64,000 bases of DNA, taken from positions 102 to 64,101 of the forward strand of contig JBBQKZ010000003.1 of assembly GCA_038327405.1 (NCBI GenBank), given 5' to 3'. Each line of letters begins with the position of its first letter. The first letter of the stretch is position 1. Source of the DNA: Burkholderiales bacterium (lineage in GTDB: Bacteria > Pseudomonadota > Gammaproteobacteria > Burkholderiales > Burkholderiaceae_C). The position numbers and the translations under genes were made by a program. Of this stretch, positions 13,614 through 33,878 are shown piece by piece. A model generated the notes under the pieces. The model ran no database searches and was not told where the DNA came from. It worked only from the letters and a program-made list of their open reading frames with translations.

Positions 13614-13669
13614 ATCTCTGGTGCGGTGCTCAACAGGCGATGTGGTGCGATGCTTGCTTGACCTTCCCC

Positions 13670-15298
13670 ATGCCCCACCGCACCGACCCCGACCACACCG
13701 GCACCGACTGGCACGCCCAGGAGCTGCTGCTCATGCGCGAGGTGATGAAGCTGGTGGGCCGCAGCCTGGCGCCGGCGTTTGTGTTGCGCGAGATGCTGCA
13801 CCTCATGAGCGAGCTGCTCGGGCTGAACCGGGGGCGCATGGTGCTGGCCGACGAAGCCACCGGCGGCCAGACCCGGGACCAGCGCACCGCCTCCATTCGC
13901 CACGCCTACGGCCTCACCGCCGGGCAGGTGGCCAGCGGCGTGTATCGCTGGGGCGAGGGCATCACCGGGCGCGTGCTGCAGACCGGCCTGCCCGCCATCG
14001 TGCAGGACGTGGACGCCGAGCCGCTCTTTCTGTTTCGCTGCGTGCCGCGCAGCCAGCTGCCGCCGCAGACCGTGGCCTTTCTGGCGCTGCCCATCGAGGT
14101 GAACGGCGCCACCATCGGCGTGCTGGCCTGCCACCGCATCCGCAGCCGCCAACGCCACCTGAACGACGACCTGGCGCTGCTGCGCATTTTGGCCACGCTG
14201 GCCGGGCAGCTGCTGCAGCTGGAACAGCTGGTGGCCGAGGAAACCCGCCAGCTCGAAGAGCGCAACGCCGCCCTGGCCCGCGCGCTCGATACGAGCACCG
14301 CGCGCTACGGGCTCATTGGCCGCTCACCCGCGCTGTTGCAAGCCCTGGGCGAGCTGGAGCGGGTGTCGCAGTCGCAGGCCACGGTGCTGCTGCTGGGCGA
14401 GTCGGGCACCGGCAAGGAGCTGTTTGCCCGCGCCGTGCACCTGGCCAGCGGCCGGCACGACCAGCCCTTCATCAAGGTGAACTGCTCGGCCATCCCCGAC
14501 ACCTTGTTCGAGTCCGAACTGTTTGGCTACGAGCGCGGCGCCTTCACCGGCGCCAACACCGCGCGCGCCGGCTGGTTCGAGCAGGCCAACGGCGGCACCA
14601 TCTTTCTGGACGAGATCGGCGAGCTGCCGCTGGCCATGCAGAGCAAGCTGCTGCGCACCCTGCAAGAAGGCACGCTGGTGCGCCTGGGCGGCACGCGCGA
14701 GCTCAAGGTGAATGTGCGCCTGGTGGCCGCGACCAACCGGGACCTGGCGCGCGACGTGCAGGCCGGGCAGTTCCGGCAAGACCTGTATTACCGGCTCAAC
14801 GTGATCCCGATCCGCCTGCCCAGCCTGCGCGAGCGGCGCGAAGACATCCGCGCACTCGCCCTGCATTTTGTGAACCGCGCCAACCAGGCCCACGAACGCA
14901 ACGTGCACCTGGCGCCCGAGGCCATGGCGCGGCTGGAAGCGCACGACTGGCCCGGCAACATCCGCGAGCTCGGTAACCTCATCGAACGCCTGGTGCTGCT
15001 GACCGACCACACCCGCGTGACCGCCGTGGCGCTGGAGCGCTTCATGCCCGAGTCGTCACCACCCGCTCCCGGCGCGGTGAATGCCATGCAAGGGCCACGC
15101 GCCACCGCACCGCCAGCCGTGGCCGGCCCGGCGCCCGACGCCCTGGTGCGCGACTACCAAAGCGCCAACTCCCACACGGCCGAGCACCTGCGCAAGGCGC
15201 TCGACCAACACCAGGGCAACCAGTCGCGCGCTGCGCAAAGCCTGGGGCTCACGCTCCGGCAGTTCAGCTACCGGCTGCGCAAGGCCGGGCTGCGGTGA
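13670..15298 (+). CDS. NifA/CynF-like sigma54-dependent activator (GAF + AAA+ + Fis HTH)
   Basis: N-terminal GAF region, Walker [20 protein letters not shown]-like [20 protein letters not shown]-terminal [14 protein letters not shown]; ATG at 13670 (GTG 13640 is an alternative). Confidence 0.92.
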
Positions 15299-15428: not shown

Positions 15429-15947
15429 ATGGAAAAGCTGCTCTCGGGCGTGGGTTCGCTGCTGTACGGCATGCGCTTCACCATGCTCTTTTTCTACGTC
15501 GGGCTGGTCGCCATCATCTTCGGCATCCTGGGCAAGTTTTTGCTGGAAACCTACAAGCTCTTCATCACCCTGATGTTCGAAGATCTGCAAAAGATCGACC
15601 TGATCATCAAGGTGCTCGAGCTGGTGGACATGACCATGGTCGCCCAGCTGGTCTGGGTGGTGGCGCTGGCGGGCGTGTCGCTGTTCGTGACCACCGGGCA
15701 CTTCGATTCAAAAGAGATGAAAAAGCCCGACTGGCTCGATCACGTCAACACCTACAACCTCAAGCTCAAGCTGGCCTTCGCCATCATTTCCATCTCGGGC
15801 GTGCACGCCCTCAAAACCTACCTCAGCGGCGAGCTGACCCTGGAAAACATCCAGGTCGTCACCATGGTGGCGGTGATCCACTTCACCTTCGTGCTCTCGG
15901 CCATCGGCATCTCGTTCGCCGAGCGGCTGACGCGAGACAAACACTGA
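15429..15947 (+). CDS. YqhA/UPF0114 family membrane protein
   Basis: LELVDMTMVAQLV and DWL...LKLKLAFAIISISGVHALK patterns, 4 TM segments. Confidence 0.8.
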   Translation: MEKLLSGVGSLLYGMRFTMLFFYVGLVAIIFGILGKFLLETYKLFITLMFEDLQKIDLIIKVLELVDMTMVAQLVWVVALAGVSLFVTTGHFDSKEMKKPDWLDHVNTYNLKLKLAFAIISISGVHALKTYLSGELTLENIQVVTMVAVIHFTFVLSAIGISFAERLTRDKH

Positions 15948-15959
15948 AGCAGCGCCGCC

Positions 15960-16175
15960 ATGAAAACCATCGACGAAATGCTGAACCTGGCCCTGCTCAC
16001 CCCCGACGAGCACCAGCAGATCAGCAGCTGGATTGCCCAGGCCGACACCCCCGACGAGATCCTGAAGATGCCGCCCCTGCTGTGGCGGGCGGTGGAGCGG
16101 GCGAGTGCGGTGATGGGGATTGACGAGGATTTGCTGCGGCCGCCTGCGCTAGATGGGGACGACGTGACCAGCTAA
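15960..16175 (+). CDS. Small hypothetical protein (71 aa)
   Basis: ORF 12 bp after yqhA, host-like codon usage. Confidence 0.65.
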   Translation: MKTIDEMLNLALLTPDEHQQISSWIAQADTPDEILKMPPLLWRAVERASAVMGIDEDLLRPPALDGDDVTS

Positions 16176-16343: not shown

Positions 16344-17060
16344 CTAGGCAGAACTGGGTTGCCAAAAGTCTGCGCTAGCGTTTGCGAGTTGGGCGTCCAA
16401 ACTGTCCCACGCGAACCCGGAGTTGCGAATCAGCATCCCCAGGTCCTCCACAAGAGATTGCATCATGTCGATGACGCGCTTCAAGTCGGCCCACTTGATG
16501 CCGAGCTGACCGATATCTACGAACTGGTACTTGTCGGCCACCAAGTGAACCTCACTATGCGCAGAGACTTTGTCTCTGATAGTGAGAAAGCCTTGCAGCG
16601 CGGGGTCGGACTCAAGAGCAAAAAACCTTATGTTGGTGCGAGTAAGGATCTCGTCAAACTGGAATCGGCGCTCGTCCCGTTCGCGTAACTCCATGCGCTT
16701 GAGAGCCTCGCGAATCTCTGCATCGGTCTCTTCTGCGATTGAAGGCAGAGTCCAAACCGCAAATCGGTCTCGCAGTTCGGCTTGAAGCTTCGCATCGCGC
16801 AGGGTGCTGACAAGCCTCTTGATACTTGGTGTTCTTTCGTCCCGATCGAGGGACAGCTTTGCAATGTCCTGCGCGCAGGAGAGAAAAAGTGAATGCCGGA
16901 GAGTCTGAAATCCCCGCGCTCGCACTTTCGAACCATGTTGCTTCACAACGGCGGCGTCGAACAGCATCGGGTGCAATAGCGCATAACGCTCTTTAAGGCT
17001 GATAAATGCATCGAGGAGATGGCTGGTATGAGCTTCGAGCTTGTCAATGCAAGTAGGCAT
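16344..17060 (-). CDS. AbiU2-like HEPN-domain protein (putative defence RNase), lower GC than host
   Basis: 238 aa helical protein with SCAQDIAKLSLD...PSIKRL and RDKVSAH (R-x5-H HEPN-type motif); sampled lines 48-60% GC versus about 70% in a sampled host gene. Confidence 0.6.
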   Translation of the reverse strand: MPTCIDKLEAHTSHLLDAFISLKERYALLHPMLFDAAVVKQHGSKVRARGFQTLRHSLFLSCAQDIAKLSLDRDERTPSIKRLVSTLRDAKLQAELRDRFAVWTLPSIAEETDAEIREALKRMELRERDERRFQFDEILTRTNIRFFALESDPALQGFLTIRDKVSAHSEVHLVADKYQFVDIGQLGIKWADLKRVIDMMQSLVEDLGMLIRNSGFAWDSLDAQLANASADFWQPSSA

Positions 17061-17379
17061 ATCTGGATTTCGACTCAAAGTGGGAGCTAAGCGGGCAACA
17101 GTGGAAGGCCGTTTGCCCGGACCATTGAAAATGCATCTCGAAGCACTGGCCCGGTGATCGCGATATTACGTTCTCATCCTGCTCGACTGTGGGCTCTTAC
17201 GTTGGGCGTTGTCTTCATTGGAGACGCGCGGACCCCCTATGTGTGTAATGCAATGCCGCTCAAACTTTGTGGGACACCTTCGCTGATTGCTTAGGAACTT
17301 CTGTCTTGGCTCAAAACTGAGATGCTCGCCCTCTCATCCGGAGCCTCGGGCACTCCCAATGCGATCAACCTGGCCTCAA

Positions 17380-17408
17380 CACTGTGTCGACATTGTGTTC
17401 ACACAGTG
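17380..17408. promoter_or_regulatory. Inverted repeat CACTGTGT-N13-ACACAGTG, candidate activator UAS
   Basis: Perfect 8-bp arms about 115 bp upstream of the sigma54 promoter at 17511. Confidence 0.5.
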
Positions 17409-17510: not shown

Positions 17511-17525
17511 TGGCACGCAGGTTGC
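17511..17525 (+). promoter_or_regulatory. Sigma54 (-24/-12) promoter of the rhodanese operon
   Basis: TGGCACGCAGGTTGC, a near-perfect TGGCAC-N5-TTGC, 50 bp before the rhodanese ATG. Confidence 0.9.
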
Positions 17526-17574: not shown

Positions 17575-18468
17575 ATGAGCATTGACGCCACCCTGATCGC
17601 CCCCGCCCAGCTTGCTGCGCTGCAGTCGTCCGAACCCGTCGTGGTCATCGACACGCGTGACGCGGACACCTTTGCCGCCGGTCACATTCCCGGTGCCGTG
17701 AACCTGCGCGAAGTGTTCACGTATCTGGCCACCTCCACACCCGAAGGCCTGCAGGCGCTCAAGGCCACGTTCGCCGAGGCGCTGGGCGCGGCCGGTTTGT
17801 CGGGCAAAGAGACGGCGGTGTTTTACGAAGACGCGATGAACAGCGGCTACGGCCAGTCGTGCCGCGGCTACTACCTGCTCACCTGGCTGGGCTACCCCAA
17901 GATCAAGGTGCTCAACGGCGGCTTCAGCGCCTGGAAATCCGCCGGCCTGCCCATCTCCACCACGGCCGCCACACCCACGCCCACCACCTTCCCCGCAGAT
18001 CTGCCCACGGCCGACGTGATGCTCACGCAAGACGACGTGAAGGCTGCCCTGGGCACCGACACCGTGTTGCTCGACGTGCGCGACATCGACGAGTGGATCG
18101 GCGAATCGTCGTCGCCTTACGGCAAGGACTTCGCGCCCCGCAAGGGCCGCCTGCCCGGCGCCAAGTGGCTCGAGTGGTACCGCTTCATGAAGCCTTCCGC
18201 ACAAGGCCCGGTGTTCAAGACGCCCGACGAAGTCAAGGCCGAGTGCGCCACCGCCGGCATCACCACCGACGACACCATCTACCTCTACTGCTTCAAGGGC
18301 GCGCGCGCGTCCAACACCTTCCTGGCGCTCAAGCAGGCCGGCTTCTCCGACGTGCGCATGTACTTCGGCTCGTGGAACGAGTGGTCGCGCGACGAGAGCC
18401 TGCCGATCGAAACCGGTCTGCCGGTGGCCAAGTCCACCAGGAAGCCTGCGCTGGCCCTGGCCGCCTGA
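17575..18468 (+). CDS. Tandem-domain sulfurtransferase (rhodanese, SseA-like)
   Basis: GHIPGAVN, LLDVR, GRLPGA, active loop YCFKGARAS, YFGSWNEWS signature; ATG 17575. Confidence 0.92.
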   Translation: MSIDATLIAPAQLAALQSSEPVVVIDTRDADTFAAGHIPGAVNLREVFTYLATSTPEGLQALKATFAEALGAAGLSGKETAVFYEDAMNSGYGQSCRGYYLLTWLGYPKIKVLNGGFSAWKSAGLPISTTAATPTPTTFPADLPTADVMLTQDDVKAALGTDTVLLDVRDIDEWIGESSSPYGKDFAPRKGRLPGAKWLEWYRFMKPSAQGPVFKTPDEVKAECATAGITTDDTIYLYCFKGARASNTFLALKQAGFSDVRMYFGSWNEWSRDESLPIETGLPVAKSTRKPALALAA

Positions 18469-18508
18469 GCTTTTCCCTTTCCCCGATTCCTGAACACCTG
18501 GAGACACC

Positions 18509-19069
18509 ATGTCCGCTACCGACACGCTTGAGCCTGTGACCACCGTGAAGGCGTACCTGCGCCCCATCGACAGCGAGGGCCTCGCGGCCTTTGCCGCCAA
18601 GGGCAAGGCCAACCCCGCCAGCCGTGGCACCAACAAGGTCCACACCGTCATGGAGGGGCAGTACCGCTCGCTCTCCACCGTGGGCAACCACGCGCCGGTG
18701 GTGGTGGACGAGCCGCTGCACCTCTTCGGCGAAGACACGGCCCCGGCGCCCGGCGAGATCGTGCTGTCGGGCCTGGGCGGATGTCTCGCGGTGGGCATCA
18801 CGGCGGTGGCCACCTGGAAGGGCGTGAAGCTCAGCAAGCTCGAGGTGTTCATGGAAGGCGACATCGGCAACCCAGCTGCGTGGGGCGCCGGAGGCGCGCT
18901 GGAGAAGCTGCCGTCCGAGATGGGCTTTCAGGCCATCCGCGTGAGGGTGGTGGTGGAGGGCGATGCGCCGCGCGAGGTGCTGGACGAGATCGTGAAGCAC
19001 GCCAACTTCTATTCACCCGTGGCCAACAGCATGCGCAACCCGATTCCGTTCGAGATTGCGATGGCCTGA
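18509..19069 (+). CDS. OsmC/Ohr family protein
   Basis: VDEPLHLFGEDTAPAPGE, LGGCL, SPVANS..NPI; RBS GGAGA. Confidence 0.88.
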   Translation: MSATDTLEPVTTVKAYLRPIDSEGLAAFAAKGKANPASRGTNKVHTVMEGQYRSLSTVGNHAPVVVDEPLHLFGEDTAPAPGEIVLSGLGGCLAVGITAVATWKGVKLSKLEVFMEGDIGNPAAWGAGGALEKLPSEMGFQAIRVRVVVEGDAPREVLDEIVKHANFYSPVANSMRNPIPFEIAMA

Positions 19070-19077
19070 TGTGTTTT

Positions 19078-19180
19078 GCTCCCTCCCCCGCTGGGGGAGG
19101 GCAGGGGTGGGGGTACGTGTGAAGCGGCTTTGTCGGCGCGCGGGCCCCCATCCCAACCTTCCCCCAGAGGGGGAAGGAGT
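19078..19180. repeat. REP-like family B pair (CCCTCCCCC..GGGGGAGGG / CCTTCCCCC..GGGGGAAGG)
   Basis: Two GC-rich hairpins in inverted arrangement, followed at once by a family A unit. Confidence 0.75.
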
Positions 19181-19189
19181 GAATTCACC

Positions 19190-19215
19190 CCGATCATCCT
19201 GAGCCTGTCGAAGGG
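19190..19215. repeat. REP-like family A single unit
   Basis: CCGATCATCCTGAGCCTGTCGAAGGG, the near reverse complement of the 13506 unit. Confidence 0.75.
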
Positions 19216-19238
19216 CCCACCCACCTGCTGGAGCTTGA

Positions 19239-20387
19239 ATGAACCCGAACGATCTGCCCCGCGAGCTGACGCAAGAAGCATCGGCCAACGAGATGTTGGC
19301 GGCCGTGCGCACCGTGGCGCAGGGCCCGCTGGCCGACGTGGTGGAAGCCTGCGACCGCAACGGCTTCTACCCGCGCGATATATTGCAACAGCTGGGCGCG
19401 CTCGGCGCATTCAGCGCGCACCTCGACGCTCCCGTGGGCCGGGCCGACTACGGCCTGGCGATCCGCGCCATGGCGGAGGTCTCGCGCGTGTGCGGTGCCA
19501 CCGGTTTCATGGTGTGGTGCCAGGCGGTGTGTGGCCTGTACATGCAGGCCTCGGGCAACCCGGCGCTGATGGGTGATGCGCTCACCGCACACGCCAGCGG
19601 CGTCACGCTGGGCGGCACCGGCATGTCCAACCCCATGAAGAGTTACGCGCAGATCGAGAGCCTGCTGCTCAAGGCCACGCCGGTGGAGGGCGGCTACCTC
19701 GTCAACGGCACGCTGCCCTGGGTGAGCAACCTCGGGCCCGACCATGCCTGCGGTGTGCTCGCGGCGGTGATGAACGGCGACGAGCTCGCCGGGCGCGAAG
19801 TGATGTTTCTGCTGCGCTGCAACGCCCCCGGCATGGAGCTGCGCGAATGCCCCAGCTTCTCCGCCATGGAAGGCACGGGCACCTACGCGCTGCGCCTCAC
19901 CAACGTGTTCATCGGCGCCGACGAGGTCATGGCCGAGCCGGCCAAGCCGTTCATCGCGCGCATCCGCGCCGCCTTCGTCATGCTCCAGTGCGGCATGGCC
20001 GTGGGCGTCACGCAGGGCGCCATCGACTCCATCTGGGAAGTCGAGGCGCAGCTCGGCCATGTGAACCAGTTTCTGGAAGACCGGCCCGACGCGCTGCAGG
20101 CCGAGCTGGACGCGCTCACCGCGCGCGTAATGAAACTGGCCGAAACACCGTTCAACCCGTCGGTGGAGTTTTTCATCGACGTGCTCGACGCACGCGCGCA
20201 CGGCGCCGAGCTGTCGCTTCGCGCCGCGCAGTCGGCCCTGCTGCACCAGGGCGCACGCGGTTACCTCATGAGCTCGGCTGTGCAGCGGCGCGTGCGCGAG
20301 TCGCACTTTGTGGCGATCGTCACGCCCGCCATCAAACACCTGCGCAAGGAGATCGCGCGGCTCTCGGCCGAGGTGATGCCGGCATGA
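19239..20387 (+). CDS. Acyl-CoA dehydrogenase-fold flavoprotein (possibly a DszC/SfnC-type monooxygenase)
   Basis: [44 protein letters not shown]; ACAD-fold layout. Confidence 0.8.
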
Positions 20388-21682
20388 ACACCCCACCAGT
20401 CGAGATGAGCCCCCCTCAGTTCGGGCTGAGCTTGTCGAAGCCCTCACCAGAAGCCACCGTGCAAGCCCTCGCACCCTGGCAGCAGTACATCTGCGACGCC
20501 TGCGGCTACATCTACAACGAAGCCGACGGCGACCCCGACGGGGGCTTGCCACCCGGCACGCGCTACGCCGACATTCCCGACGACTGGTCTTGCCCACTGT
20601 GCGGCGTGACCAAGGCCGACTTCACGCCGTACACACCGCCCAGCCTCGAAGCCTTGCGCGCCGGCATGACGAACAGCGCCCCGGTGGCCACACGCGGCGC
20701 GGCCGGCGTACTCATCGTCGGCGCAGGGCGCGCCGGCTGGCAGATGGCCGAAGCCCTGCGCTCGCTTGACGCCGTATTACCCATCACCGTGGTCACGGCC
20801 TGCGCGGGCGACGTGTACGACAAGCCCATGCTGTCCATCGCCATGGCGCGCAGTACCGCGCTGGACGCCATGGTCAGGGAAAGCGGCACGGCGGCGGCAG
20901 CGCGCCTGAACGTGCGCCTGATCAGCCACACGCAGGCCGTGCGCATCTGCACCGACACCCGGCAGCTGCGCACCACACGCGGCAACCTGAAATATGACCG
21001 CCTCGTGCTGGCCCACGGCGCACAAGCCGCGCTGCCACCCTCGCTGCCCGCTGCGATGTGCTGGCGCATCAACCACCTGGCGGCGTACCAGAAGCTGCGC
21101 ACAGCACTCGGCGACACGCCGAAGGACGTGACCATCGTCGGCGCCGGCCTGATCGGCAGCGAACTCGCCAACGACCTCGCGCTCGGCGGCCACCGCATCA
21201 CCTTGCTGGACGTGCAGACCGAGCCGCTCGCGCGCTGGAGCGCCGAGGGCGCAGGCAGCCAACTGCTCGACGCGTGGAAAGACCTCGCCATCCGATTCGT
21301 GGGCGGTGTGCAGGTGGCACAGCTGGAGCAGGTGGCGGGCCGCTACCGCATCACCACCACCTGCGGCCAGCGCTTCGCCGCCGACCAGGTGATCGCCGCC
21401 GCCGGCCTGAGCACGCCGCCGCGCCTGGCGCAGAGTGCCGACCTGAAGTGGTACAACGGCATCGCTGTGGATGCGGCGAACCTGAAGACGAGCAACGAGC
21501 TCATCCACGCCATGGGCGACTGCATCGCCATCAACGGCCAACCCAGCCGCTTCATCGAACCCATCGCAAGGCAAGCCCGGGCCATCGCGGCCGACATCTG
21601 CGGCACAACCCCGGCGCCCTACGAACCACGCGCAGCGGTGGTGCGGGTCAAGACGACCTCACGGCCTCTGACCCTGCACTGA
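20384..21682 (+). CDS. Rubredoxin fused to an FAD/NAD(P)H-dependent rubredoxin reductase
   Basis: [10 protein letters not shown]...[10 protein letters not shown] rubredoxin, then GAGRAG FAD motif, [18 protein letters not shown] motif, MGDC; overlaps the ACAD stop (ATGA). Confidence 0.92.
20417..20443. repeat. REP-like family A unit inside the 5' end of the rubredoxin gene
   Basis: CAGTTCGGGCTGAGCTTGTCGAAGCCC encodes QFGLSLSKP in frame. Confidence 0.75.
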
Positions 21683-25000: not shown

Positions 25001-25098
25001 TGGATTGTTCGCGTCAGTGAAAGATGATTTTTGATCTTACCGACTTATCAATACAGCGCAGGCCCGGTAAAGTGCCCCTTCAACAGGAGAACACCCCC

Positions 25099-25983
25099 AT
25101 GAAAACCGTTTCTTTCATCCAGCGCAGCGCCGGCGGCCATTGGGTCGGCGACGGCTTTCCGGTGCGCAGCATGTTTTCGTACAACGACCGGCCCGAGCGC
25201 TTTTCGCCCTTCCTCATGCTCGACTACGGCGGCCCCACGCGGTTCGAGCCCACCACGAAAAAACTGGGCGTGGGCCAGCACCCGCACCGCGGCTTCGAGA
25301 CCGTGACCATCGTCTACGAGGGCGAGGTCTCGCACCGCGACTCCAGCGGCGGCGGCGGCACCATCGGCCCCGGTGAAGTGCAGTGGATGACCGCGGCCAG
25401 CGGCATCGTGCACGAGGAATACCACGGCGAGCGCTTCGCCAAGAGCGGCGGCGCGTTCGAGATGGTGCAGCTGTGGGTGAACCTGCCGGCGCGCGACAAG
25501 ATGGCCGCGCCGGGTTATCAGGGCATCACGCGCGAGCAGATTCCCGAGGTGGCTTTGCTGGATGTGAACGGGGTGGGCGCCGGCACCGCGCGCATCATCG
25601 CGGGCGAACTGCTCGGCTCAGTAGGCCCGGCGCACACCTTCACGCCCATGCAGGTGTGGGACCTGCGCCTGAAGGCCGGCCACACCGTGACCTTGCCGGC
25701 CGCAGCGGGCCACACCACCGCACCACTGGTGCTGCGCGGGCGGCTGCGCCTGTCCGACGGAAAGGAAGTGGTGGCGGCGAACCTGCCCGTGTTCTCGCGC
25801 GAGGGCGAGGGCGTGACGCTGGAGGTGCTGGAAGACAGCACCGTGCTCTGGCTGAGCGGTGAGCCGATCGACGAACCTGTGGTCGGCTACGGCCCATTCG
25901 TGATGAACACCGAGGCCGAGATCCACCAAGCCTTCACCGATTTCCAGAGCGGCAAGATGGGTCGCATCACAGCCACGGCCTGA
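25099..25983 (+). CDS. Pirin family protein
   Basis: HPHRGFETVT, HRDS, QWMTAASGIVHEE, GPFVMNT; ATG 25099. Confidence 0.93.
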   Translation: MKTVSFIQRSAGGHWVGDGFPVRSMFSYNDRPERFSPFLMLDYGGPTRFEPTTKKLGVGQHPHRGFETVTIVYEGEVSHRDSSGGGGTIGPGEVQWMTAASGIVHEEYHGERFAKSGGAFEMVQLWVNLPARDKMAAPGYQGITREQIPEVALLDVNGVGAGTARIIAGELLGSVGPAHTFTPMQVWDLRLKAGHTVTLPAAAGHTTAPLVLRGRLRLSDGKEVVAANLPVFSREGEGVTLEVLEDSTVLWLSGEPIDEPVVGYGPFVMNTEAEIHQAFTDFQSGKMGRITATA

Positions 25984-25999
25984 GCCCAAGGAGAACACG

Positions 26000-26869
26000 A
26001 TGCTGGAGACGGTCATCACCGCGCGCTCTGCCGACCTGGGCCACGGTCTGAAGGTGCGGCGCGTGCTGCCCTACGCCAAACGCCGCATGGTCGGCCCGTG
26101 GATCTTTGTCGACCACGCCGGCCCGGTGACGATTGCGGCTGAGGACACGCGCGCGGCTGACGTGCGCCCGCACCCGCACATCGGCCTGTCGACCGTGAGC
26201 TATCTGCTCAGCGGGCAGGTGCATCACCGCGACAGCCTGGGCGTGGACCAGCTGATCAACCCCGGCGACGTGAACTGGATGACCGCCGGGCGCGGCATCT
26301 CGCATTCCGAGCGCTTCAAGCACCCGGACTCGTTTGCCGGCGGCGGGCTGGAACTCATGCAGCTCTGGGTGGCCCTGCCAGAGAAGGACGAAGAGACCGA
26401 CCCCGCCTTCACCCACTACCCGTCGGCCGACCTGCCGGTGCGTGACGAGAGCGGCGTGTGGATGCGCTTGATCGCGGGCGAGGCCTACGGCATGACGAGC
26501 CCGGTGAAGACGCACTCGCCGCTGTTCTACCTGCACACCGAGTGGCAGGCCGGCGCGAGCCTGGCCCTGCCCGGCGGCTACAGCGAGCAAGCGGTGTACG
26601 TGGCTAGCGGCGAGATCGAACATGCGGGCGAGACCTATGTGCCGGGCCAGCTGCTGGTGTTCGGCAACGACACCGACGCCCTGATCACAGCGCGCACCAA
26701 AAGCACGCTGATGGTCTTTGGCGGTGAGCCGCTGGGCGAGCGCCATGTGTTCTGGAACTTCGTGTCCTCGCGCAAGGAACGCATCGAGAAGGCCAAGGCC
26801 GACTGGACGGCGGGGCGTTTTGCGCTGCCGCCCGACGACAACCAGGAGTGGATCCCGCTGCCCGGGTAG
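26000..26869 (+). CDS. Pirin family protein (second copy)
   Basis: VRPHPHIGLSTV, HRDS, NWMTAGRGISHSE, WNFVSS. Confidence 0.93.
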   Translation: MLETVITARSADLGHGLKVRRVLPYAKRRMVGPWIFVDHAGPVTIAAEDTRAADVRPHPHIGLSTVSYLLSGQVHHRDSLGVDQLINPGDVNWMTAGRGISHSERFKHPDSFAGGGLELMQLWVALPEKDEETDPAFTHYPSADLPVRDESGVWMRLIAGEAYGMTSPVKTHSPLFYLHTEWQAGASLALPGGYSEQAVYVASGEIEHAGETYVPGQLLVFGNDTDALITARTKSTLMVFGGEPLGERHVFWNFVSSRKERIEKAKADWTAGRFALPPDDNQEWIPLPG

Positions 26870-27563: not shown

Positions 27564-28031
27564 CTACAGCCCGAGCGCGGTCAAGCCAGGGTGGTCTGCC
27601 GGTCTCTGCCCCAACGGCCAGTGGAACAAGCGCTCGCTTGATGCGATCGGCCGGTCGTTGATGCTGGCGTGGCGTTGTTCCATATAGCCCTCGGGCGTGA
27701 ATTGCCAATTCTCGTTGCCATACGAACGAAACCACTGGCCCGAGTCGTCGTGCCATTCGTAGACGAAGCGCACCGCGATGCGGTTGTCGGTGAACGCCCA
27801 GAGTTCCTTGATGAGCCGGTACTCCAGTTCCTTCACCCACTTGCGCACCAGGAAGGCGTGCACCTGCTCGCGGCCCACCGGAAACTCCGCGCGGTTGCGC
27901 CAGCGCGTGTCTTCGGTGTAGACCTTGACCACCCGGTCCGGGTCGCGCGAATTCCACGCGTCTTCGGCCATGCGCACCTTTTGCGCGGCGGTCTCGGCGG
28001 TGAAAGGCGGCAGCGGCGGGCGCGGTTCCAT
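27564..28031 (-). CDS. DUF1348 / NTF2-SnoaL-like protein
   Basis: [28 protein letters not shown], [26 protein letters not shown]; start overlaps the cynS stop. Confidence 0.88.
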
Positions 28032-28474
28032 CAGTACTGTTTGTAGGGGAGAAATTTGCCCGACATGACGATGTTCACGCGGTCACCGTTCGGATCTGCC
28101 TGGCGCTTCATGTCCATCTTGAAATCGATCGCGCTCATGATGCCGTCGCCGAACTCTTCATGGATCAGTTCCTTGAAGGTGGTGCCGTACACGCTCACGA
28201 GTTCGTAGAAGCGGTAGATCAGCGGATCGGTCGGCACCGAGGTGGGGAGTGAGCCTTTGTAAGGCACGACCATGAGCCACTTCTGTTCATCGCTGGAGAG
28301 GCCGAAGATCTTGCCGAGCACCTTGGCCTGGGCCGGTGTGGCGGTCATCTGGCCCAGGCACAGCGCGGTGGTCCATTCCTTGGACTGGCCCACCTTCTTG
28401 GCCACGTCGGCCCAGCTCAGGCCCTTGATGACTTTGGTGGTGATGATCTTTTCGGTGACGTCGAGTCGGCTCAT
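28031..28474 (-). CDS. cynS: Cyanate hydratase (cyanase)
   Basis: 147 aa; [32 protein letters not shown] signatures. Confidence 0.96.
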
Positions 28475-28529
28475 GGTGTTGCCTCTTTGTTGATGAAACG
28501 GTTGAGTGAAGGGAAGTTGTCCAGGGACA

Positions 28530-28608
28530 CCGCGGGTCCGGCTCCGCCGGCCCCAGGTGTCGCCCCCCTCTTCAGAGGGGGGTGGCGCCGCAGGCGACGC
28601 GGGGGGTT
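28530..28608. repeat. REP-like family C element
   Basis: CGCCCCCCTCTTCAGAGGGGGGTGGCG hairpin plus CGCCGCAGGCGACGCGGGGGG; similar in reverse to 34479-34535. Confidence 0.55.
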
Positions 28609-29480
28609 CAATGGGCTCGCGCACGCGAGACCAAAAAATCCACGATGTGGTTTCGGAGGTCGTAGTAGCCGTCGAGGTGGTGCAGTTGGGCGCGGGTGCG
28701 GCTGCGCGGCAGCGGGTTCACCACCACCTCGGCCATGCCGCCGGGCTTGTAGCCGTTGGGGGTCTCGGTGCCGTTGCTCATGAGCAGGATTCGGTCGGCC
28801 AGCAGGATGGCTTCGTCCACGTCGTGCGTGATCATGAAAACGGTCTGGTGCGTCTCGCGCACGATGCCCATGAGCTCGTCCTGGATGGTTCCGCGCGTGA
28901 GCGCATCGAGCGCGCCGAAGGGCTCGTCAAGCAGCAGCATCTTGGGCTGGATGGCAAAGGCCCGTGCAATACCCACGCGCTGCTTCATGCCGCCCGAGAG
29001 CTGGCTCGGCTTCTTGTCGATGGCAGGCGACAGGCCCACCAGCGCCACGAATTTTTCGGCGTGTTCGTTGATCTGCGAGCGGCTCCAGTCGGGCCAGCGC
29101 GACTTCACGGCGAACGCGATGTTTTGCCGCACGGTGAGCCAGGGCATGAGCGCATGGCTCTGGAACACCACGCCACGCTCCAGGCTGGGACCGGCGATCT
29201 CGCGGCCGTCCATGAAGCAGTGGCCAGAGGTGGCGGTGTCCAGGCCCGCAAGCACGTTGAGGATGGTGGTCTTGCCGCAGCCGCTGTGGCCGATGATGCA
29301 GACGAACTCGCCCTTGTCGATGGCGAACGACACGTCGGCAAACACCGGCTTGTCGGCCTGGTAGGCCTTGGCGAGGTTTTCAACCTGGAGGAAACCGGTC
29401 ATCTTGGGCGCTTTCGTTGGGGCCGGTGCGGCAGGCATGGGGGCCACGGCGCTTTCGCGCACGCTGGTGTCACTCCACAT
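28608..29480 (-). CDS. Nitrate/cyanate ABC transporter ATP-binding subunit (CynD/NrtD-like)
   Basis: GHSGCGKTT, LSGGMKQRV, LLLDEPFGALD, ITHDVDEA; alternative start at 29403. Confidence 0.92.
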   Translation of the reverse strand: MWSDTSVRESAVAPMPAAPAPTKAPKMTGFLQVENLAKAYQADKPVFADVSFAIDKGEFVCIIGHSGCGKTTILNVLAGLDTATSGHCFMDGREIAGPSLERGVVFQSHALMPWLTVRQNIAFAVKSRWPDWSRSQINEHAEKFVALVGLSPAIDKKPSQLSGGMKQRVGIARAFAIQPKMLLLDEPFGALDALTRGTIQDELMGIVRETHQTVFMITHDVDEAILLADRILLMSNGTETPNGYKPGGMAEVVVNPLPRSRTRAQLHHLDGYYDLRNHIVDFLVSRARAH

Positions 29481-30333
29481 AGGTCACCGCCTTCTGCAGC
29501 TGGGCGAACATGAGGTCGAGCAACATGCCGACCACCCCGATGAGCAGCACGGCAAAGATCACGTTGGTGAGCGAGAGGTTGTTCCACTCGTTCCACACGA
29601 AGTAACCCACGCCGGTGCCGCCCACCAGCATCTCGGCGGCCACGATCACCAACCACGCGATGCCCATGCTGATGCGCATGCCGGTGAGGATGGTGGGCGC
29701 GGCGGCCGGCAGGATGACCTGGAAGGCCTTGCGGATCGGGTTCACTTCGAGGGTGCTCGCCACGTTGAGCCACTCGCGCTTGACGGCGGACACACCGAAC
29801 GCTGTGTTGATCAACATCGGCCACACCGAGCAGATGAAGATCACGAAGATGCCGCTCACGTCGGAGTCTTTCAGCGTGTAGAGCGCCAGCGGCATCCAGG
29901 CCAGCGGGCTGATGGGTTTGAGCACCTGCACGAAGGGGTCGAACGCCTTGCGCATCAGCGGCGACATGCCGATGAGGAAACCCAGCGGAATGGCCACCGC
30001 CATGGCGAGCAAAAAGCCCAGGCCCACGCGGCCCAGCGAATGCGCGAGCTGGATGCCGATGCCTTTGTCGTTCGGCCCTTTGTCATAGAACGGATCGGAC
30101 AGGTGCTCCCAGCTGGCCTTGGCCACTTCGATGGGCGGCGGGAAGCCGGTGCTCTTCTCGGCACCGGGGTCCTTGCCCATCATCTTGGCGTACTCGATCT
30201 GCTCGGCCGACATACCGCTGGACGATCCACCGATCGACGGGCCCGTTGTTGAAAGCTGCCAGACCCCAATGAAAACGCAGAAGATGATCAGCGAGACCAG
30301 GGCCGCGCGCAGGTTGAGGCTGGTGGCTTTCAT
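29470..30333 (-). CDS. Nitrate/cyanate ABC transporter permease (CynB/NrtB-like)
   Basis: PFYDKGPNDKGIG, LKPISPLAWMP, WLVIVAAEML, WNEWNN. Confidence 0.92.
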   Translation of the reverse strand: MKATSLNLRAALVSLIIFCVFIGVWQLSTTGPSIGGSSSGMSAEQIEYAKMMGKDPGAEKSTGFPPPIEVAKASWEHLSDPFYDKGPNDKGIGIQLAHSLGRVGLGFLLAMAVAIPLGFLIGMSPLMRKAFDPFVQVLKPISPLAWMPLALYTLKDSDVSGIFVIFICSVWPMLINTAFGVSAVKREWLNVASTLEVNPIRKAFQVILPAAAPTILTGMRISMGIAWLVIVAAEMLVGGTGVGYFVWNEWNNLSLTNVIFAVLLIGVVGMLLDLMFAQLQKAVTYVE

Positions 30334-30335
30334 GG

Positions 30336-31745
30336 TCAAGCGGTTTTGCTGATGGCAAAACTTTTCAGGTATTCAGCCGGTTTCGCCGAATCGAACTCCT
30401 TGCCCATGATGACGTGCTTGCGATAACCCGGGCCGGCGGCGAATGGCTGGCCAAGGTCCTTCATGTACTTGCGCGCATCGGTGATGAGGAACACCTTCTC
30501 GGCCACGGCCTTGTAGTCCACATCGCCTTTGACGTAACCCCAGCGTTGCATCTGCGTGAGCATCCACACGGCCATGCTCTGCCACGGCATCGGGTCGAAG
30601 TCGGCGCGCTCGGGCACGTTCTGGATCTTGCCCAGGCCGTCGGCAAAGCGACCAGTGAGCACCTGCGTGACCACGGCTTCGGGCTGGTTGAGGTACTGGC
30701 TCGGCGAGATCACTTTGGCGATCAGTTCGCGGTTCTTCGGGTCGCGTGCCATCGCGGCCGAGGTGAGCACCGCGCGGTACAACGCCGCGAAGGTGTTGGG
30801 GTTCTTCTGGATGAACTCGGTGCTGGTGCCGAAGGCGCAGCAGGGGTGGCCGTCCCACAGGTCGCGGGTGAGCACGTGGATGAAACCCACTTCGTCGAAC
30901 ACCGCGCGCTGGTTGAATGGGTCCGGGCCGAGGAAACCGTCGATGTTGCCGGCGCGCAGGTTGGCCACCATCTCGGCCGGCGGGATCACGCGCAGCTGCA
31001 CGTCGGTGTCGGGGTTCAGGCCGTTTTCGGCCAGGTAGTAGCGCAACAGGAAGTTGTGCATGGAGTAGTCGAACGGAATGCCGAACTTGAAGCCCTTCCA
31101 GTTCTTCGGGTCGCGGTTGTTCTTGTGCTTCAGGGCCAGGGTGATCGCTTGCCCGTTGATGTTCTGGATGGTGGCCACATTCATCGGGGTGGCGTTGCTG
31201 CCCAGGCCCAGGCTGATGGCCAGCGGCATCGGCGAGAGGAAGTGGGTGGCGTCGTATTCCTTGTTGATCATCTTGTCGCGCACCAGGGCCCAGCCCGCGG
31301 TTTTGGTGACTTCGACGTTGAGGCCCTGCTTCTGGTAGAAGCCCAGCGGCGCGGCCATGATCAGCGGTGTGGCGCAGGTGATCGGGATGAAGCCGATCTT
31401 CAGGTTGGTCTTCTCCAGCGAGCCTTGTTTCTCTTGCGCCATGGCCTGCAGGCTGGCCACCGGCAACACGCTGGCGATGGCCGCCATGGCCGTGCCCTTG
31501 CCCACCGCACGCAGGAACAGGCGACGTTGCTCGTCGTGCGGGAACAGTGCCTTGACCAGCGTGGCTTCAATGAACTCGTTGCTGTAGGCCTCGAACTCGG
31601 CGGTCTCGCTGCGCCGGCGCAACTCGATGGCCGCACCGTCGGCCGCCACCTCGGCGTGGTGGTCGGCGATCGTGTGGTCGCGCCCGCAGCTGCACTTGAG
31701 CATGAGCGGGCGATCTGCGTTGTAGGGATCGAAGAATTCGGACAT
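30336..31745 (-). CDS. CmpA/NrtA/CynA-family ABC substrate-binding protein
   Basis: N-terminal CSCG..H extension, RRLFLR Tat-like region, LKIGFIPITCATP, MHNFLLRYYLA, HPCC. Confidence 0.92.
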   Translation of the reverse strand: MSEFFDPYNADRPLMLKCSCGRDHTIADHHAEVAADGAAIELRRRSETAEFEAYSNEFIEATLVKALFPHDEQRRLFLRAVGKGTAMAAIASVLPVASLQAMAQEKQGSLEKTNLKIGFIPITCATPLIMAAPLGFYQKQGLNVEVTKTAGWALVRDKMINKEYDATHFLSPMPLAISLGLGSNATPMNVATIQNINGQAITLALKHKNNRDPKNWKGFKFGIPFDYSMHNFLLRYYLAENGLNPDTDVQLRVIPPAEMVANLRAGNIDGFLGPDPFNQRAVFDEVGFIHVLTRDLWDGHPCCAFGTSTEFIQKNPNTFAALYRAVLTSAAMARDPKNRELIAKVISPSQYLNQPEAVVTQVLTGRFADGLGKIQNVPERADFDPMPWQSMAVWMLTQMQRWGYVKGDVDYKAVAEKVFLITDARKYMKDLGQPFAAGPGYRKHVIMGKEFDSAKPAEYLKSFAISKTA

Positions 31746-31783
31746 GGCGAGCACCTCGTGAGTTGATGGACGAGGTGGTCATT

Positions 31784-31798
31784 GCAAGCACCGGGCCA
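31784..31798 (-). promoter_or_regulatory. Sigma54 (-24/-12) promoter of the ABC-cynS operon
   Basis: Minus strand TGGCCCGGTGCTTGC(AA), GG-N10-GC, about 40 bp before the SBP ATG. Confidence 0.85.
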
Positions 31799-31860
31799 GA
31801 TACCGGCTGGGGGTACCCGTTCATCGCCATGCATGCCAAATCGCGAGGCTCCCGCTGACC

Positions 31861-31884
31861 CCGTGTAGGGCTGGCCCTACACGG
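31861..31884. promoter_or_regulatory. Perfect palindrome CCGTGTAGGG-CTGG-CCCTACACGG (candidate UAS or hairpin)
   Basis: 10-bp perfect arms 63-86 bp upstream of the sigma54 promoter; no U-tract. Confidence 0.45.
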
Positions 31885-33775: not shown

Positions 33776-33878
33776 GCAGCCGTCGCACGCAATGAATGTG
33801 CCAAAGCGGTGCATGGCCGGCGAGCGGCGACAATGCGTCTCACGCCTCACGCCTTCCAGAGACCACCGGTAACCCTCC

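Follow-up and report, generated by a model that had tools for sequence, protein, structure and literature searches.

The closest published system to the one described here is the cynFABDS cyanate-assimilation cluster of Pseudomonas pseudoalcaligenes CECT5344, which combines a Fis-family sigma-54 activator, a sigma-54 promoter, the CynABD importer, and cyanase (PMC6627978). The known thiocyanate-breakdown enzymes are only two, thiocyanate dehydrogenase (cyanate pathway) and thiocyanate hydrolase (carbonyl sulfide, COS, pathway), and both belong to specialized sulfur oxidizers (PMC5328954). We describe a gene module that includes an OsmC-like protein and, often, a rhodanese. It lies in a stretch of 64,000 nucleotides from a Burkholderiales bacterium (assembly GCA_038327405.1, contig JBBQKZ010000003.1); this whole stretch is called the window, and positions are counted from its first letter. 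The window has all the components of the cynFABDS system.

The two genes that drew attention to the locus encode a two-domain rhodanese, or sulfurtransferase (17575–18468, + strand), and a one-Cys OsmC-like protein (18509–19069, + strand). The original prediction treated them as a pair with a possible persulfide relay, in which the lone cysteine of the OsmC-like protein may accept sulfane sulfur. In their genomic context, they are the first two genes of a predicted sigma-54-dependent operon. It continues with a flavoprotein of the acyl-CoA dehydrogenase (ACAD) fold (19239–20387, + strand) and a rubredoxin fused to an FAD/NAD(P)H rubredoxin reductase (20384–21682, + strand), whose ATG overlaps the stop codon of the ACAD gene (ATGA).

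The module across genomes

The constant core of the module is the OsmC-like protein, the ACAD-like flavoprotein, and rubredoxin with its reductase, without the rhodanese. A scan of species-representative genomes returned at least 481 loci encoding relatives, and the best 80 were analyzed; the locus search was seeded with alignment A2, as alignment A1 was too diverse. These 80 loci come from Beta-, Gamma-, and Alphaproteobacteria, namely Comamonadaceae, other Burkholderiales, Stutzerimonas, Marinobacter, Vreelandella, Methylobacterium, Methylocella, and Xanthobacter, with an OsmC identity of 73–98%. The ACAD gene stands directly 3′ of the OsmC gene in 74 of the 75 loci with enough sequence, and rubredoxin and reductase are present in 66 of 67. 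The rhodanese gene lies directly upstream of the OsmC gene in 43 of 73 loci and is found anywhere in the locus in 48 of 80. A stand-alone pair does not survive this survey: the rhodanese is facultative, and the fixed partner of the OsmC-like protein is the ACAD-like flavoprotein, not the rhodanese.

Seven genomes of the same family give a closer view of this arrangement. All seven carry the OsmC, ACAD, and rubredoxin genes, three carry the rhodanese (once 3′ of the ACAD gene), and five have the activator inside the analyzed stretch. The window itself has the OsmC-like gene followed by the ACAD-like gene and by rubredoxin with its reductase (18509–21682), with a sigma-54 promoter, a GAF-type activator, and the cyn genes near.

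The link to cyanate genes is best seen in the 35 loci whose flanks reach 8 kb or more on each side (full-flank loci): 33 contain the activator, 29 have cyn genes within 10 kb, 24 have cynS, and 16 have the rhodanese. In Alpha- and Gammaproteobacteria, Paraburkholderia, and Herbaspirillum, the order OsmC, ACAD, rubredoxin, rubredoxin reductase, cynA, cynB, cynD, and sometimes cynS runs on one strand, with the activator adjacent; the genera with this order include Methylobacterium, Stutzerimonas, and Vreelandella. On the evidence of gene order, the module is conserved, widespread, and uncharacterized, and it is attached to a cyanate-assimilation regulon of CynF-like activator, cynABD importer, and cyanase.

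The CFKGAR rhodanese, named here after its active-site loop, is a dedicated but optional accessory of the module. In a family survey of 61 genomes, one per genus, a close orthologue (E ≤ 1e-40) occurs in four; each of these genomes carries the module and has its copy inside it. None of the 53 family genomes without a close OsmC orthologue has a rhodanese orthologue. The back-translated pattern YCFKGARA matches 8 genomes in a phylum-wide sample of 401; the reversed-pattern control matches none. Every one of these eight matches is a full-length rhodanese orthologue in a module-carrying genome; seven adjoin module genes, and the eighth genome has its OsmC orthologue on another contig. The position of the gene varies, and in other lineages it is placed after the ACAD gene or after the cyn genes.

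Inspection of the unassigned open reading frames (ORFs) inside module operons revealed a second accessory. Twelve loci without the rhodanese encode a metallo-beta-lactamase-fold protein of ~300 amino acids, with a match to the sulfur dioxygenase portion of Blh (NF040641, E 1.6e-114); 8 of these 12 also encode a TauE/SafE sulfite exporter. Across all 80 loci, 47 have the rhodanese only, 12 the dioxygenase only, 20 neither, and one, L109, is the sole locus with both; the corresponding numbers in the 35 full-flank loci are 16, 8, 11, and 0. At L075, L078, L082, L087, L093, L096, L099, and L109, the genes for the Blh-type dioxygenase and TauE/SafE are co-directional with and downstream of OsmC, ACAD, and rubredoxin; where cyn genes are present, the accessory genes are placed after them. 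Two different sulfane-sulfur-consuming enzymes alternate at the module, which is the strongest indication that the core yields sulfane sulfur. Because its alternate is a persulfide-consuming dioxygenase, the rhodanese would be a sink for sulfur rather than a source.

Proteins of the module and a candidate route for sulfur

The rhodanese is a module-specific protein of 297 amino acids with tandem rhodanese domains (PF00581, 121.9 bits over two stretches in a Pfam search). It aligns over its full length with the solved two-domain sulfurtransferases 1E0C, 8K55, and 1RHD (E 1e-17 to 3e-29). Its C-terminal domain carries the six-residue active-site loop C239-F-K-G-A-R244 (18289–18306, + strand; TGC TTC AAG GGC GCG CGC), which aligns with CRIGER of 8K55 and CQTHHR of 1E0C. 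The original prediction held that this loop is unlike those of thiosulfate sulfurtransferase (TST) and 3-mercaptopyruvate sulfurtransferase (MST), and the comparison bears it out. The protein scores 89.3 bits against the cut-off of 250 for the SseA/MST family NF008557, and its loop is not CG[ST]GVT. The CRKGVT of bovine TST is likewise absent, and only the Lys-Gly at +2/+3 is common to both loops. CFKGAR is present in 119 of 120 close homologues and is identical in 51 of 51 module rhodaneses, including copies of 55–65% identity in other classes, despite the varying gene position. CFKGAR is a true signature of a specialized rhodanese clade. In the host genome, rhodanese domains give 14 matches, spread over at least a dozen places, and a second two-domain gene is among them; the CFKGAR copy is thus an additional, specialized paralogue.

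Two further features of the rhodanese are conserved. A second invariant cysteine, Cys96, lies in the N-terminal domain (motif GQSCRG; codon 17860–17862, + strand), is kept in 51 of 51 module rhodaneses, and is invariant in the homologue alignment. This domain is normally inactive, and Cys96 would sit where, in other two-domain rhodaneses, a loop or helix lines the active-site cleft. At the C-terminus, the tail LALAA (18451–18465, + strand) resembles the end of the ssrA degradation tag. Among 121 homologues, 119 end in AA and 89 in LAA, and residues 285–297 are disordered in the predicted model (pLDDT, the model confidence, ~40). The tail may make the rhodanese a built-in protease substrate with a short life. 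A longer rhodanese ORF from 17287 was rejected: it would engulf the promoter, and homologues start at the same MSI... position as the ORF at 17575.

The OsmC-like protein (186 amino acids; 2OPL/GSU2788 type) scores 75.8 bits against the Pfam cut-off of 27.5 for PF02566. It has exactly one cysteine, Cys92 (codon 18782–18784, + strand), which lies in GLGGCL (18770–18787; GGC CTG GGC GGA TGT CTC) at the peroxidatic position of OsmC/Ohr proteins. At the position of the resolving cysteine of 2-Cys OsmC proteins stands Ser169 (codon 19013–19015, + strand), within YSPV (19010–19021; TAT TCA CCC GTG), which gives S-P-V in place of C-P-V. The codons of these motifs and of the rhodanese loop lie exactly where the original prediction had placed them, and its reading of a retained first cysteine with serine at the second position stands. 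The implied loss of a cysteine does not, as serine is the norm of the subfamily. An alignment of 76 representatives, taken from a database with 50%-identity clusters, has Cys92 in 70 of them; at position 169, 51 carry Ser, 6 Thr, and only 4 Cys, and 2OPL also reads YSPV. Among module orthologues, Cys92 is kept in 87 of 87.

The protein falls in a one-Cys branch of the 2OPL type. PDB entry 2OPL is its best sequence match (phmmer E 3.2e-12 over residues 39–183), with both motifs (SGCL...YSPV) aligned. The predicted model has an OsmC fold and finds 2OPL (best), 1NYE, 1LQL, and 1N2F in Foldseek, with probability 1.00; residues 1–38 precede the first core strand and include a helix at 22–34. Against the OsmC-related (seleno)protein family NF041052, the score is 53.7 bits for a cut-off of 95. 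Because the Cys92/Ser169 pattern is kept across the subfamily and in 2OPL, the protein is a member of a large, old, and conserved one-Cys OsmC branch, not as a peroxidase with a recent cysteine loss. Glu83 (70 of 76 representatives) and Arg53 (54 of 76) are conserved around Cys92 in the sequence alignment, which makes an activated Cys92 thiolate likely. With serine in place of the resolving cysteine, an intramolecular disulfide cycle is impossible, and the conservation of the one-Cys state makes non-canonical thiol chemistry a reasonable expectation.

A second sulfur cluster is present elsewhere in the same genome, on contig C166 (L021:480–2277), where an OsmC-family gene stands beside a single-domain rhodanese. 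This OsmC-family gene (VGNCL...FCTV) is broken by an in-frame TAG and is possibly a pseudogene or an assembly error; the cluster also encodes a metallo-beta-lactamase-fold protein that, as judged by eye, is persulfide-dioxygenase-like.

The ACAD-fold flavoprotein (Pfam Acyl-CoA_dh_N/M/2) is unlikely to be an acyl-CoA dehydrogenase, because it lacks both canonical catalytic glutamates. VTP stands in place of YEG (alignments to 9W60 and 7W0J stop just before VTP), and Ala occupies the position of IVD Glu254 (alignment to 4KTO), so that both canonical positions are non-acidic. Its Cys85 and Cys204 are invariant (83 of 83), and the four rubredoxin cysteines are kept in 29 of 29. More likely, the flavoprotein is an oxidase, oxygenase, or dehydrogenase for another substrate, with rubredoxin and its reductase as the link to NAD(P)H.

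How might these proteins work together? We consider the chances about even that the core forms cyanate by oxidizing an imported sulfur-carbon-nitrogen anion, most likely thiocyanate, and that the sulfane sulfur left on a protein thiol is then taken by the rhodanese. In such a pathway, thiocyanate would be the simplest substrate, the rubredoxin system would connect NAD(P)H with the flavin, and cyanase would convert the cyanate to ammonia, a nitrogen source. The sulfur atom would stay behind on a protein thiol, in persulfide form. Cys92 of the OsmC-like protein is the best candidate carrier, as an invariant, solitary cysteine with a presumably activating Glu and Arg on its flanks; Cys204 of the ACAD-like protein would be the alternative. 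Cys239 of the rhodanese, perhaps with Cys96, would take the sulfur and pass it to sulfite or a thiol, so that the relay would run from OsmC to rhodanese. One possible chemistry, which is our own proposal, is that a thiolate couples oxidatively with thiocyanate to give R-S-S-CN, which is then hydrolyzed to R-S-SH and cyanate. A persulfide relay is plausible. The link between a non-canonical OsmC thiol and sulfane sulfur, which the original prediction had drawn, is reasonable given the conserved one-Cys state and gains independent support from the persulfide dioxygenase, with or without TauE, of rhodanese-free loci; the direction it gave, from rhodanese to OsmC, appears less likely.

A wider form of this proposal is tentative, and we hold it improbable on balance: the core may be the missing cytoplasmic thiocyanate-to-cyanate system of ordinary heterotrophs such as Methylobacterium, Paraburkholderia, and Hydrogenophaga, with the OsmC cysteine as persulfide acceptor. 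In this form, the CFKGAR rhodanese would collect the sulfur and, via cyanide, close a sulfur cycle that also turns cyanide to cyanate. A search of the host genome (90% complete) for thiocyanate hydrolase by way of the nitrile-hydratase alpha family gave no matches, and its controls gave none either.

Several points weigh against oxidation of thiocyanate by the core with transfer of its sulfur to the rhodanese. Gene neighborhood is the basis for the substrate, for cyanate as the product, for the persulfide, and for its carrier residue, and the loci are mutually related, so the counts overstate the number of independent events. Neither the rhodanese nor the dioxygenase lies near the module in 11 of the 35 full-flank loci, so the module need not have a dedicated sulfur sink. 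In other lineages, the rhodanese is next to the ACAD gene, not the OsmC gene, and no rhodanese::OsmC fusion was found among the longer relatives searched: six such proteins were rare, of partial coverage, and without a rhodanese domain. Ten long relatives considered as fusion evidence for direct interaction were rejected, as they contain only tandem OsmC domains or else unrelated pieces (HTH_8, RsfS, AMIN) that resemble chimeras of gene calling. The cyn operon of the window and of other Comamonadaceae forms a separate unit with a different palindrome, which leaves co-regulation by one activator unsupported here. Finally, the retained Cys-Glu-Arg set would equally suit a peroxidase-type thiol.

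This last point leads to the alternative that survives best, although we regard it as unlikely. In this reading, a hydroperoxide, flavin-derived H2O2, or hypothiocyanite from the flavoprotein would be removed by the OsmC-like protein, acting as a scavenger or a one-Cys thiol peroxidase. The rhodanese would work on its own, for instance in thiosulfate formation or cyanide detoxification, and no sulfur would pass directly from one protein to the other. One-Cys peroxidases with external reductants are established among peroxiredoxins. The predicted OsmC fold retains Cys92, Glu83, and Arg53, as in the Ohr/OsmC catalytic set, and the constant neighbor is a flavoprotein of an oxygen-reactive type, together with a rubredoxin reductase system. 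However, Ser or Thr at the resolving position is selected over hundreds of clusters of the subfamily, and the same genome has a separate OsmC-family paralogue that keeps the second cysteine. A protective role also leaves unexplained the tight, order-conserved coupling to the ACAD-like gene and the recurrent sulfur-disposal accessories.

A different substrate is a weaker contender, and we think it quite unlikely. Organic thiocyanates, isothiocyanates, thiocarbamates, or thiourea could give cyanate or a cyanate-like product, or cyanide could enter through thiocyanate made by the rhodanese; in either case, both proteins would still handle the released sulfur. The neighborhood evidence is the same as for thiocyanate and does not decide between these substrates, and conversion of cyanide to thiocyanate is the classical rhodanese reaction. 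Yet the adjacent importer belongs to the NrtA/CynA type for small anions, a better fit to an inorganic anion than to organic molecules, and the rhodanese is absent from many modules, so cyanide is not a general entry point.

Least probable, and in our view very unlikely, is that the rhodanese loads sulfane sulfur derived from thiosulfate (or thiocyanate) onto the single OsmC cysteine as a carrier for a downstream acceptor: the invariant Cys92, the normal six-residue C-X4-R loop that keeps the Lys-Gly of thiosulfate sulfurtransferases, and the adjacency of the two genes under a common promoter in Comamonadaceae speak for it, but ~40% of modules lack the rhodanese, rhodanese-free operons often carry a persulfide-consuming dioxygenase as expected if the rhodanese is a sink and not a source, the module has no evident consumer of sulfane sulfur, and the genes are not adjacent in other lineages.

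Regulatory sites and neighboring genes

The predicted sigma-54 promoter of the module, TGGCAC-N5-TTGC (17511–17525, + strand), is an exact match to the motif and lies 50 bp 5′ of the rhodanese ATG. The same exact motif also stands before the first module gene in five of the seven same-family loci, be it the gene for the rhodanese, for OsmC, or for ACAD. Further upstream is a putative activator site, composed of the palindrome TGTCGACA (17385–17392) and a degenerate second copy, TGTTCACA (17396–17403, + strand). Within 220 bp upstream of the module promoter, TGTCGACA with at most one mismatch occurs at least once in 62 of 71 loci and at least twice in 48 of 71. The sigma-54 enhancer-binding activator (13640–15298, + strand) has the domain order GAF, AAA+, and Fis-type helix-turn-helix (HTH), with Pfam matches to Sigma54_activat (239.8 bits), GAF, and HTH_8, and is CynF-like by position.

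Three genes lie between the activator and the operon: a UPF0114 membrane-protein gene (15429–15947), a short ORF with no Pfam match (15960–16175), and an inserted low-GC HEPN/AbiU2 gene (16344–17078, − strand; Pfam 109.6 bits). The GC content of the 16–18 kb stretch is 58%, compared with ~66% elsewhere. Inside the operon, two G/C-rich hairpins resembling repetitive extragenic palindromes (REP) occupy 19081–19177 (+ strand) between the OsmC and ACAD genes, with the arms CCCTCCCCC-GCT-GGGGGAGGG and CCTTCCCCC-AGA-GGGGGAAGG. The contigs of relatives skip 150–187 bases at this point, and the hairpins are therefore a strain-specific REP-like insertion. Contigs from RNA libraries of three studies contain close relatives of the operon and span the rhodanese–OsmC junction; as records of presence only, they give weak support, compatible with expression and co-transcription and proof of neither.

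The cyn genes of the window form a separate transcription unit 6 kb downstream of the module (27564–31754, − strand), which consists of the cynA-cynB-cynD ABC importer, the cyanase gene cynS, and a DUF1348 gene (Pfam NMT1_2, BPD_transp_1, ABC_tran, Cyanate_lyase with CYNS_N, and DUF1348). Its sigma-54-type promoter, TGGCCC-N5-TTGC (31784–31798, − strand), is preceded by the palindrome TGTAGGGCCAGCCCTACA. The palindrome before cynA is conserved in other Comamonadaceae loci (L041–L061) as TGTAGGGCYRGCCCTACA; in the window it falls within 31800–31880 (− strand). A common activator site for the module and cyn promoters of the window was considered and rejected, as TGTCGACA and TGTAGGGCCAGCCCTACA agree only in their TGT...ACA ends. 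The difference between the cynA palindrome and the TGTCGACA pair of the module suggests another mode of binding or a second activator.

Upstream of the cyn operon, a further exact TGGCAC-N5-TTGC (33789–33803, − strand) stands at the start of a gene pair for a PAS histidine kinase and a NarL-type regulator, which may also be sigma-54-controlled. Two tandem pirin genes (25024–26869, + strand) lie between the module and the cyn operon, and other Hydrogenophaga loci again have pirin-like ORFs downstream of the module.

Comparison with described systems

The rhodanese belongs with the two-domain sulfurtransferases, exemplified by bovine TST (CRKGVT), Escherichia coli SseA/MST (CGSGVT), Azotobacter RhdA (1E0C), and 8K55, with which it shares the tandem domains and a C-terminal six-residue Cys loop. 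It differs from them in the CFKGAR loop itself, in the extra invariant Cys96, in the conserved LALAA tail, and in forming a module-restricted clade. If the proposed role is true, CFKGAR with a second invariant cysteine would define a new rhodanese specificity class.

The OsmC-like protein shares its fold with the OsmC/Ohr peroxidases (1NYE/1QWI for E. coli OsmC; 1N2F for P. aeruginosa Ohr) and, by sequence, would also correspond to them in the central-helix cysteine, the glutamate ~9 residues before it, and an earlier arginine. It differs in having serine at the resolving cysteine of C-P-V, in the N-terminal stretch of residues 1–38, and in its gene context. Its nearest structural relative, 2OPL (GSU2788 of Geobacter sulfurreducens), is a structural genomics entry with no assigned function. 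The two proteins agree in length class (187 amino acids for 2OPL) and in the one-Cys pattern SGCL...YSPV, with only ~24% identity in the structural alignment. The 2OPL structure has been available since 2007, and the proposed role, if true, would be the first function for this large one-Cys branch.

Units of heterotrophic sulfide oxidation that combine persulfide dioxygenase and rhodanese (Blh, NF040641, and fusions of the two) likewise deal with sulfane sulfur and have a rhodanese and/or a dioxygenase together with a sulfite exporter. In contrast, the module lacks sulfide:quinone oxidoreductase (SQR), its presumed sulfur source is the OsmC/ACAD core, and its predicted sigma-54 regulation is of the nitrogen/cyanate type. 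A Rhodococcus proteome paper reports an OsmC-like protein that is induced beside SQR and a dioxygenase-rhodanese gene, and its authors read it as a stress protein. Our literature search found no paper that describes the module or that relevantly joins thiocyanate and cyanase with OsmC or with combinations of rubredoxin and acyl-CoA dehydrogenase.

The cynFABDS cluster remains the nearest reference for the locus as a whole, and many relatives of the window have the module in one string with cynABD(S). The published cluster is without OsmC-like, ACAD-like, rubredoxin, and rhodanese genes (PMC6627978). In the window, these genes form an extra predicted operon with its own promoter and upstream site. 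The position of the module beside cyanase, its nitrogen-type promoter, and its one of two alternative sulfur-disposal accessories make it a concrete candidate for the missing thiocyanate route. Should that idea fail, the pair would still be a well-delimited case of dedicated sulfur-handling proteins in an unknown nitrogen-regulated pathway.

Compared with the described thiocyanate enzymes, the module may carry out the same overall conversion as thiocyanate dehydrogenase, from thiocyanate to cyanate and sulfur. It would do so with proteins of other Pfam families (OsmC, Acyl-CoA_dh, and Rhodanese), through a flavin- and rubredoxin-based system that is cytoplasmic by composition. Its gene neighborhood ties it to nitrogen assimilation, not to energy metabolism.

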